A stretch of DNA of 2,028 nucleotides. Source: a plasmid. Positions 1 through 1,591 of this stretch are shown in pieces. The position numbers and the translations under genes are program-made. The DNA lies in assembly GCF_058153355.1 (NCBI RefSeq), contig NZ_JBLWLY010000003.1; one strand, written 5' to 3'. Within the stretch, counting starts at the first letter, position 1. Each line of letters starts with the position of its first letter. Under the pieces are notes generated by a model. The model searched no databases and was not told where the DNA came from. It worked only from the letters and a program-made list of their open reading frames with translations.

Positions 1-441
1 ATGAGCAAGGACACCCAGAGAATCACCCAGATTAACGATCAAGGTGAGATTGTTGGCGGCTTCGTCGCGGTAATCAGACCCAAGCAAAAATCGTCATTTC
101 AGAGGCATTTCACTATGAACCAAGACGCATTAAAGATCCTCGCTAAGGAGCTAACGGGCGAGCAATTTAAAGTTCTAATGCTCATGCTCGCTGATCTGGA
201 TTACGAGAATTTCATCCAAATTGCACAGGCTGATATAGCGGATGCATTGGAGATGCAAAAGACCCACGTAAGCCGCGCTGTTCGTGCTCTTCTTGATGTA
301 GGCGTGATCTTTGAAGGTCCGAAAGTAGGTAGATCCAAAACCTATCGGTTGAACGAGCAATTCGGCTGGAAAGGAACAGTAAGCAATCACAAAAAAGCCC
401 TTAAAAACGGCCTCAGCGTTATACAGGGCGGCAGAACCTGA
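1..441 (+). CDS. Putative plasmid replication initiator, winged-helix HTH, RepL-like (function tentative)
   Basis: Intact 146-codon ORF beginning with ATG at position 1 and ending with TGA at 439-441. The central segment (LTGEQFKVLMLMLADLDYENFIQIAQADIADALEMQKTHVSRAVRALLDVGVI) has the pattern of a MarR/winged-helix recognition unit. Overall length and layout resemble small RepL-family replication proteins (assignment from memory of the family, not from a search). It is paired with a relaxase gene as in small plasmids. An alternative internal start exists at ATG 115-117, preceded by AGAGG at 101-105. Confidence 0.6.
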   Translation: MSKDTQRITQINDQGEIVGGFVAVIRPKQKSSFQRHFTMNQDALKILAKELTGEQFKVLMLMLADLDYENFIQIAQADIADALEMQKTHVSRAVRALLDVGVIFEGPKVGRSKTYRLNEQFGWKGTVSNHKKALKNGLSVIQGGRT

Positions 442-504: not shown

Positions 505-1473
505 CTAACGCTCCATACCACCCATGCCACGCGATCGCGTCTGTCGCTGTTTTTCACGTTCAATACGCTGCTGTTTTTCCTTTTCCTGGTTTTGCTGCTT
601 AAACCGCTGAGCCATCATCAGGATTTCGGTCATCTGCTCTCTGGAAAGCCCCTTAAAAGGCTCTGTAACGCTCTGTAGGCGTTTCTGCTGCGCATCCATA
701 GTCTTCTGTAGCTCACGCGCTCTTTTTGCGTTCTGGGCGCTCTGAGAGGCCATAGCGATGGTTCCTGCAAAGCCATCGTTCACTGCGTGGCTTAGACGTT
801 TGGCTATGGCTGCCTGATCTTCCACGTCTTTGGTGAAAATGCCCTTCCGCAATACACGCGGCTCCAGCGCCTCCGGCGAGATCGATACCTGGCTACGGGT
901 GCCACGGTTTATCGATTCGTAGTAGTGCTGAACTGTCTGATGCGTGGCGCGGCTTCCCTCGATGCCGCGCTCAAGACCCAGTTTTTTTACTGATTCAGCG
1001 TAGGTGCTCTGATCTTCACGCATCTTTGACCGCCCGCCAATAAACTCTTTCGCGGACAGCCGTCCATCCTGCGTCAATGGCACCACGAACGCAGACAGGT
1101 GCGGGGTGGCCTCGTCCCGGTGAACCACCGCCGCCACAACACGATCCTTCCCGTATTTCTTCTCCAGCCATTGCTCAGAGCGGGCGAAAAACTCCGCCTG
1201 CTGCCGTGGTGTGGCCTCTTTCCACCACTCAGGGCTTGCTGTCATAACGTATTCAACGGCCAGTACCGCATCTTTACGGCGTTTTTCCGGCAGCAGCTCC
1301 CGCACACGCCCCATTGCCTGATCCGTTGATTTGGACACAGAGCAGTAGTTTTCTGGTGTCCGTTCAGCGTTAGCGTTCGGCGTCTCACGCTCTCGGTAGC
1401 AGTGCTGCAACGCGCTGGCCACGCTTCCCATTCCCGTCAGCTTTTTGCAGCGCATTATCGCGTAGTTCGCCAT
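505..1473 (-). CDS. Plasmid mobilization relaxase, Mob_Pre / MobV family
   Basis: Minus-strand ORF with stop TAG (complement of 505-507). The N-terminus MANYAIMRCKKLTGMGSVASALQHCYRERETPNANAERTPENY matches the Mob_Pre N-terminal signature (YA-x-R-x-KK ... H-x-x-RE ... N-x-N). An internal HRDEATPH segment resembles the metal-binding H-x-DE-x-x-PH motif of this family. The C-terminal ~70 residues are Q/K/E/R-rich and coiled-coil-like, as in MobM-type relaxases. I chose the start at ATG 1471-1473 because a six-G run (complement of 1477-1482) lies 3 nt upstream as a Shine-Dalgarno; the ORF track's longer start at 1492-1494 has no visible RBS. Confidence 0.85.
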   Translation of the reverse strand: MANYAIMRCKKLTGMGSVASALQHCYRERETPNANAERTPENYCSVSKSTDQAMGRVRELLPEKRRKDAVLAVEYVMTASPEWWKEATPRQQAEFFARSEQWLEKKYGKDRVVAAVVHRDEATPHLSAFVVPLTQDGRLSAKEFIGGRSKMREDQSTYAESVKKLGLERGIEGSRATHQTVQHYYESINRGTRSQVSISPEALEPRVLRKGIFTKDVEDQAAIAKRLSHAVNDGFAGTIAMASQSAQNAKRARELQKTMDAQQKRLQSVTEPFKGLSREQMTEILMMAQRFKQQNQEKEKQQRIEREKQRQTRSRGMGGMER

Positions 1474-1476
1474 GTT

Positions 1477-1482
1477 CCCCCC
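1477..1482 (-). promoter_or_regulatory. Ribosome-binding site for the relaxase gene
   Basis: Minus-strand sequence reads CAGGGGGGAAC-ATG; the G-run ends 3 nt before the ATG at 1473. Confidence 0.5.
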
Positions 1483-1539
1483 TGATTCCGGCATTCATTC
1501 AGCCAGGCGGGGGAGCGCATTGCGATACCTCCGGCGGGC

Positions 1540-1567
1540 CACTATCAAGATGATAGTGTACTCACTA
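1540..1567. other. Candidate oriT / relaxase operator: nested overlapping inverted repeats upstream of mob
   Basis: CACTATCA (1540-1547), AGA spacer, TGATAGTG (1551-1558) form a perfect 8-bp-arm inverted repeat. TAGTG (1554-1558) also pairs with CACTA (1563-1567) across loop TACT, giving mutually exclusive alternative hairpins. MobV-family oriTs (for example pMV158) are known to lie just upstream of the mob gene and to consist of overlapping inverted repeats with the nick site in a GTG-containing loop; here the segment sits ~70 bp upstream of the mob start. On the minus strand TTGATA (complement of 1544-1549) could serve as a -35 for the mob promoter. Confidence 0.45.
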
Positions 1568-1591
1568 GACTTTGCTTCGCAAAATCGTTCG

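Follow-up and report, generated by a model that had tools for sequence, protein, structure and literature searches.

The stretch of DNA analysed here (the window) has 2,028 nucleotides, comes from a plasmid (contig NZ_JBLWLY010000003.1 of the RefSeq assembly GCF_058153355.1) and encodes on its minus strand a relaxase of the MobV family, whose gene (mob) has two in-frame ATG codons at its beginning, called ATG1494 and ATG1473 after the position of their first letter. An earlier sequence-only reading of this DNA had proposed 1473 rather than 1494 as the start, and this choice is supported by family profiles, by an alignment with the relaxase MobM, by the Shine-Dalgarno (SD) sequence, by related plasmids and by existing annotation; we consider it very probable that ATG1473 is the physiological start of the relaxase. 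Translation from ATG1473, guided by the G-rich SD at 1483-1477, would give a relaxase of 322 amino acids (aa), probably of the MOBV2 (pBBR1-like) type, in which the conserved first strand and the HxxR motif (His24) would, as in MobM, follow at once on the N-terminus. Positions 1494 to 1474 (21 nt) would then be part of the untranslated leader, and ATG1494 would be a chance in-frame codon that arose in this plasmid lineage, situated where a leader hairpin has its variable apex, and presumably used little or not at all since it lacks a ribosome-binding site.

The start codon of the relaxase gene

Read on the minus strand, the start region is ...CTGGCTGAA TGA ATG(1494) CCG GAA TCA GGG GGG AAC ATG(1473) GCG AAC TAC GCG ATA ATG(1455) CGC TGC..., the letters just before the TGA being GCTGAA. 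The interval 1471-1494, to which the ambiguity had been assigned, has as its exact ends the G of ATG1473 and the A of ATG1494. As had been described, both ATGs are in frame and the longest open reading frame (ORF) begins at 1494 (MPESGGNM...): it covers 505..1494 on the minus strand and encodes 329 aa (N-terminus MPESGGNMANYAIMR...), and since an in-frame TGA stands directly before ATG1494, no longer ORF is possible. Starting at ATG1473 gives 322 aa with the N-terminus MANYAIMRCKKL..., and this codon follows, at a distance of 3 nt, a tract of six Gs (1482-1477) that is itself preceded by A1483.

Aligning the N-terminus with MobV-family members had been suggested as a check, and the Pfam, NCBIfam and MobM alignments that we ran all favour 1473. 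The Pfam family Mob_Pre (PF01076) matched with E=5.7e-45 and 154 bits (cutoff 25.5) over positions 1-195 of the 196 of its profile, the first of which is aligned with the Met at 1473 (residue 8 of the long ORF), showing that MANYAIMR... fits the conserved Mob_Pre N-terminus as had been proposed. The NCBIfam MobV equivalog (NF041497) scored 161.9 bits (cutoff 100), with its profile position 2 on long-ORF residue 10. The MobM relaxase domain of pMV158, which is the only solved homologue, matched over residues 11-192 (phmmer, E=2e-15), and residue 2 (Tyr) of its crystal chain 4lvi_A aligns with long-ORF residue 11; Edman sequencing and matrix-assisted laser desorption/ionization showed that Met1 is removed from MobM, and the 4lvi_A chain is likewise without Met1 (PMC3105389). 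MobM thus begins with M-S-Y..., the 1473 start would give M-A-N-Y..., and the 1494 start would give eight residues more than MobM. The seven-residue extension encoded from 1494 is matched neither by the Pfam profile, nor by the NCBIfam profile, nor by the MobM structure.

The catalytic region had been expected at the very start of the protein, and this proved correct. Motif I (HxxR) is found near the N-terminus as HCYR, at residues 24-27 of the 322-aa form, and its His24 (in ALQHCYRE) aligns with the His of 'KHNER' in MobM, in which the nucleophile is a histidine, His22 (PMC5863519). The metal-binding motif III, defined as HxDExxPHxH (PMC3105389), is represented by HRDEATPHLS, which aligns with HLDESTPHMH of MobM: HxDExxPH is present, while the last His is a Ser here. 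With the 1473 start, the relaxase domain begins at the N-terminus of the protein without any leader peptide, which is not so with the 1494 start. Site-specific nicking and mobilisation by this relaxase are predicted functions.

SD strength was estimated as the best duplex of the 20 nt upstream of a codon with the 3' end of the 16S rRNA and compared with all 20-nt windows of the plasmid. ATG1473 gave an anti-SD duplex of -10.5 kcal/mol, which only 1.7% of these windows equal or exceed, whereas ATG1494 gave -3.6 kcal/mol, which 46% of the windows reach as well, and nothing SD-like was found in the 20 nt upstream of ATG1494. This asymmetry between the two in-frame codons is real and beyond chance. 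The claim that only 1473 is preceded by an SD-like GGGGGG thus stands among the in-frame candidates, but it does not extend to the out-of-frame ATG1520, which has a better SD (GGAGG at 1532-1528, 7-nt spacer, -13.3 kcal/mol). A third in-frame codon, ATG1455, lies six codons downstream of ATG1473 (Met7 of the 322-aa form) and could in principle start a protein beginning with MRCKKL...; we judge this extremely improbable, as it has no SD either (-3.5 kcal/mol) and its use would truncate a conserved N-terminus, MANYAI being aligned with the beginning of both the Pfam profile and the MobM crystal chain.

Related loci were collected by scanning species-representative genomes and metagenome contigs with a degenerate DNA pattern encoding YAIMRCKKL and by adding relatives from a plasmid database; with 12 loci from genomes and 60 from metagenomes, 40 distinct upstream sequences of 80 nt were obtained. 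A start codon is located 0-2 codons before the conserved Tyr in every one of these 40 relatives (39 ATG, 1 GTG), bearing out the view that seven extra residues would be unusual for the family. A G-rich SD with an anti-SD duplex of -6 kcal/mol or better is present in 37 of them (median -11.0 kcal/mol), where it typically reads GAGGGGG or GGGGAGGGG and is followed by 5 nt to the start. Only nine of the 40 have an in-frame upstream ATG before the first stop, at 2, 7, 9, 10, 16 or 17 codons and at positions that are not homologous; an in-frame ATG a few codons upstream of the true start is unremarkable.

The seven-codon version, with ATG1494, occurs only in the window's own lineage (12 loci, two sequence variants). 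Elsewhere the extension is read in another frame, as seen when the window (ATG CCG GAA TCA GGG GGG AAC) is compared with locus L006 (ATG GAC GCC GGA ACG AGG GGG GGA AGC), and in L003 and L004 the ATG that corresponds to 1494 is out of frame and followed by TAA. More generally, 1-nt indels among the relatives shift the frame upstream of the start, and the distance from a conserved upstream block, GGAGG-N5-7-xTG, to the start takes every value from 47 to 54 nt (modulo-3 classes of 12, 7 and 5). The G tract upstream of the mob ATG also varies, from G5 to G11 among near-identical plasmids (L006, L017, L023, L038, L039, L051, L078), which could reflect slipped-strand variation of the SD and its spacer or homopolymer sequencing errors. 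Since the spacing is not restricted to multiples of three, since indels shift the frame and since the G tract varies in length, the region upstream of 1473 is a leader rather than coding sequence.

Existing annotation mostly agrees with the 1473 start. RefSeq/PGAP and DFAST both give 505..1473 on identical plasmids, and PGAP picks the equivalent ATG on plasmids of ~90% and ~80% identity, including one with an in-frame ATG further upstream. The protein collection records the 322-aa form on 1000 contigs or more, compared to 45 contigs for the 329-aa form (e.g. AHE41799.1). Start calls are nevertheless inconsistent across the sister plasmids of this relaxase family (322, 329 or 338 aa), and since the 329-aa form exists in public databases, the start-site ambiguity is a real, if minor, annotation issue. 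Searching the literature for studies of start codons in MobV relaxases from small enterobacterial plasmids returned nothing specific. As the 1473 start is already the public annotation, our start finding re-derives it and adds nothing new; it confirms 1473 as the right RefSeq start (322 aa), which makes the 329-aa public entries over-extended. It is of use for annotation hygiene and for cloning or expression of the relaxase, where the choice of start matters because N-terminal extensions or tags adjoin the catalytic His.

A conserved hairpin over the mob start

The mob leader can fold into a hairpin (Table 1) whose 3' arm consists of the mob SD, the start codon and codons 2-3, so that the SD and ATG1473 are base-paired, and ATG1494 is found at its variable apical loop (1501-1493). 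The 69-nt core of the window leader has a minimum free energy (MFE) of -28.3 kcal/mol (z=-2.9 against dinucleotide shuffles); the whole 111-nt leader retains the hairpin and is not more stable than its shuffles (z=-0.4). The same fold architecture was obtained each time in the leaders of 24 distinct relatives. In a MAFFT alignment of 25 distinct leaders, a hand-specified helix of 15 pairs had 87.7% of its cells paired, compared to 31-60% when the 3' partners were slid, and one of its pairs shows a clean switch from U-A (11 sequences) to C-G (10 sequences). In a covariance-model alignment of 35 distinct sequences, which by its nature leans towards the model, nine of the 15 pairs display double-sided changes and none of 500 shuffles reached the observed values; paired cells amount to 87-88% across the two alignments. 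RNAalifold on the plain MAFFT alignment returned only the stem between the C tract and the G tract, with no covariation, the fuller hairpin being obtained by hand specification or with the covariance-model alignment, and no Rfam family matched in the window. We take the leader hairpin to be real and conserved, with some covariation. Its pairing marks ATG1473 and its SD as conserved, constrained elements, whether its role is one of RNA or of DNA.

Near the 5' end of this hairpin, the GGAGG that precedes ATG1520 belongs to the invariant columns 1-7 of the leader alignment. In alphaproteobacterial relatives, the 1520-type codon is TTG. In sister lineages, a 1-nt indel puts the 1520-type ATG in frame with mob, which accounts for the 338-aa 'MobV family relaxase' entries (RefSeq WP_204652620.1 on NZ_CP069984.1; GenBank CP099049.1). 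A conserved upstream peptide was considered for the upstream ORF (uORF) and rejected: where it is not fused to mob, this ORF has anything from 5 to 93 codons, relative to mob it is in frame 0 in 6 lineages, in frame 1 in 6 and in frame 2 in 12, and substitutions fall at second codon positions.

Two roles can be considered for the hairpin. It may, as a tentative proposal that we would not yet bet on, place the synthesis of pBBR1-like (MOBV2) relaxases under translational control: in the conserved hairpin an upstream C tract is paired with the mob SD and start codon, ribosomes might open it from the upstream (A/T)TG with its strong SD (1520 here, where the 21-codon uORF begins), and a second relaxase isoform of 338 aa, extended at its N-terminus, could be made where this codon is in frame. 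If this were true, a post-transcriptional layer would be added to the known transcriptional autoregulation of MOBV relaxases, and a functional hairpin would show in a simple and testable way how a plasmid mobilisation gene can be controlled at translation. It is a serious possibility, although still short of what we would expect, that the inverted repeat at 1528-1462 acts instead as DNA, either as a single-strand hairpin of the transferred strand by the origin of transfer (oriT) or as a Mob operator, with its overlap with the SD and ATG being incidental. The distance between the repeat and the putative nick is 35-100 nt, inverted repeats abound in MOBV origins of transfer (PMC5863519), the few G-U pairs needed mean that either strand could fold, and the flanking GTGGCCCGCCGGAGG block persists in lineages whose leader is otherwise missing. 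On the other hand, in every lineage the 3' arm coincides exactly with the SD, the start codon and codons 2-3, and the 5' arm covaries with the change in codon 3 (U-A to C-G), as occlusion of the SD and AUG predicts. What is mildly new in this analysis is limited to the conserved SD/AUG-pairing hairpin and the upstream start codon with its SD, which are leads rather than conclusions.

The hairpin also bears on the choice between the two in-frame ATGs, and it is one of several points that weigh against a start at 1473. In the predicted MFE fold the SD and ATG1473 are paired while ATG1494 is exposed at the open apical loop, where some initiation without an SD might in principle be favoured. Only 3-4 nt separate the G6 tract from ATG1473 (4 when pairing involves the first five Gs), compared to 5 nt in the relatives, and a spacer of 3-4 nt is at the short end of functional spacing. 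The search pattern required YAIMRCKKL, which builds the conservation of those residues into the sample, and the lineages sampled are related, so that 40 sequences are not 40 independent trials. Finally, the choice rests on sequence analysis.

For these reasons of exposure and pairing, we keep a small probability on ATG1494 being a genuine start, sole or additional, from which SD-independent initiation in the single-stranded loop would make a 329-aa relaxase with an MPESGGN tail. This start gives the longest ORF and has been deposited as such on the 45 contigs mentioned above, but it is rejected by PGAP and DFAST, has an upstream duplex that nearly half of the plasmid's windows match and is absent from every other lineage, and its extension finds no counterpart in Pfam, NCBIfam or the MobM structure and is broken in relatives by frame-shifting indels that reveal no coding constraint. 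We therefore regard it as improbable and infer that ribosomes choose ATG1473 in vivo.

The plasmid and the features around mob

The window is a complete circular plasmid of 2028 bp. By megablast, it is 100% identical over its full length to the E. coli plasmid pB349aT_3 (NZ_CP091776.1), and more than 12 other 2028-bp plasmids from Escherichia, Shigella and Klebsiella also match at 100%. MOB-suite typed it as mobilisable, MOBV. Among 5426 complete E. coli genomes, a mob 5' region of this type was found in 101, always on plasmids and never on the chromosome. Identical mob leaders were also seen in assemblies labelled Arthrobacter mobilis, Pantoea and Bacillota MAG (L009, L011, L012), which looks like contamination or co-assembly.

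Besides the relaxase gene, which ends at 505 on the minus strand, the plasmid carries one other gene, for a 146-aa winged-helix protein (1-441, plus strand). This protein is annotated as 'MarR family transcriptional regulator' and, in one RefSeq record, as 'replication protein'; it gave only sub-threshold matches, to winged-helix families, among them the N-terminal domain of phage replication protein O. Since the plasmid has no gene besides this one and mob, the protein is probably the replication initiator. Two tandem 21-bp repeats at 1966-2010, ACA(T/C)(A/T)GTTACCAATAATGGTA, each of which holds the palindrome TTACCAATAATGGTAA, are located just upstream of this gene, which starts at position 1 of the circle, and probably serve the plasmid's replication protein as iterons or as an operator. 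Between the putative oriT and these repeats, the intergenic region contains an inverted repeat whose perfect 10-bp arms, TCGTCAAGGG / CCCTTGACGA, are 22 nt apart (1694-1735).

Immediately upstream of mob, the segment ATTTTGCGAAGCAAAGT + CTAGTGAG / T at 1585-1560 has the layout of an oriT, with an inverted repeat ~8 nt from a putative nick of the GTG(T/A)G/T type, predicted between G1561 and T1560. It closely resembles known and predicted oriTs in sequence and architecture: the minimal oriT of pMV158 ('IR1+8') is ACTTTATGAATATAAAGTATAGTGTG/, that is, ACTTTATGAATATAAAGT ATAGTGTG/ (PMC3105389), and the predicted oriTs of MOBV2 plasmids contain ...CAAATTGTCTAGTaAGT... (PMC3832669). A consensus scan found no sigma-70-like promoter anywhere in the plasmid, and TTGCGA-N16-TACACT (Table 1), which overlaps the putative oriT, is below its threshold; that it may be the mob promoter we infer only by analogy with pMV158, in which the mobM promoters are in or next to oriT (PMC5863519). 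Since the scan found no promoter, ATG1494 could not be excluded by way of a transcription start.

Table 1. Coordinates of the features at and upstream of the mob start (positions in the window)
Feature	Position	Strand	Basis
In-frame TGA stop	1495..1497	-	Directly upstream of ATG1494; read from the sequence
mobV relaxase coding sequence, best supported, 322 aa, MANYAIMRCKKL..., identical to WP_000024818.1	505..1473	-	Pfam Mob_Pre, NCBIfam MobV, PGAP and DFAST coordinates
mob ATG start codon, family-conserved	1471..1473	-	Start 0-2 codons before the conserved Tyr in 40/40 relatives
SD-like AGGGGGG, 3-nt spacer AAC (1476-1474) to ATG1473	1477..1483	-	Anti-SD duplex of -10.5 kcal/mol
Seven-codon in-frame extension MPESGGN, judged non-coding leader	1474..1494	-	No SD; window lineage only; frame shifts in relatives
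Leader hairpin, 5' arm UCGC.AUG..CUCCCC (1525-1510) with 3' arm GGGGGG..CAU.GCGA (1482-1467)	1462..1528	-	Fold and comparison
Out-of-frame uORF, 21 codons, MRSPAWLNECRNQGGTWRTTR, from ATG1520 to TAA at 1457-1455, overlapping the mob start	1455..1520	-	SD scan and ORF comparison
Canonical GGAGG, 7 nt upstream of ATG1520, within the conserved GTGGCCCGCCGGAGG block by the oriT repeat	1528..1532	-	Anti-SD duplex; invariant alignment columns
Putative minimal oriT: stem-loop ATTTTGC-GAA-GCAAAGT (1585-1569), 8 nt CTAGTGAG (1568-1561), predicted nick before T1560	1560..1585	-	Resemblance to the pMV158 and MOBV2 oriTs
Perfect 8-bp inverted repeat CACTATCA/TGATAGTG, just downstream of the putative nick	1540..1558	.	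Repeat search; conserved in relatives
Weak sigma-70-like candidate mob promoter TTGCGA-N16-TACACT, 8/12 matches, overlapping the putative oriT	1555..1582	-	By eye

Comparison with known MOBV relaxases

The closest known system is the plasmid itself: WP_000024818.1, the 'MobV family relaxase' of 2.0-2.4-kb Enterobacteriaceae plasmids (e.g. NZ_CP091776.1), is the same protein on the same plasmid, with its start at 1473 and no difference.

MobM of the streptococcal plasmid pMV158, the MOBV1 prototype (structures 4LVI-4LVM, 5N2Q), belongs to the same Mob_Pre fold family as the relaxase studied here. In both, the N-terminus is 2-3 residues ahead of the conserved Tyr, the HxxR motif is present with its nucleophile His aligned (ALQHCYRE here, AFKHNERV in MobM) and HxDExxPH is shared (HRDEATPH here, HLDESTPH in MobM), whereas the last His of the 3H motif is a Ser here (PHLS) and a His in MobM (PHMH). 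The two proteins also differ in length (322 aa here, 494 for MobM), their C-terminal parts being unrelated. At the DNA level, the oriT, putative here, immediately precedes the gene in both pMV158 and the window; its stem ends in AAAGT and is followed by 8 nt (A/C)TAGTG(T/A)G and the nick, predicted here (PMC3105389), and the overlap of a candidate promoter with oriT that we propose here would resemble the arrangement of the mobM promoters in pMV158 (PMC5863519). Unlike the rolling-circle replicon of pMV158, the plasmid studied here is a small replicon with iteron-like direct repeats in a Gram-negative host, and its leader is G+C-rich and has a hairpin that pairs SD and AUG, while no such hairpin has been described for mobM.

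MOBV2 is the proteobacterial clade of the MOBV relaxases, with pBBR1 as its archetype, a single mob gene and oriT upstream of it (PMC3832669). The archetypal relaxase is Mob of pBBR1 from Bordetella bronchiseptica. The plasmid studied here, with a proteobacterial host, a single mob gene and the MOB-suite type MOBV, may belong to this clade. Relatives that we recovered have nearly identical N-termini, MAAYAIMRCKKLA... and MGAYAIMRCKKLAKMGNVAASLKHAYRERE (L008), which we take to be how pBBR1 Mob begins, and these relatives also have the conserved leader block and the hairpin. The window lineage differs in that its 1520 block has ATG instead of TTG, its SD spacer is shorter and it has an additional in-frame codon, ATG1494.

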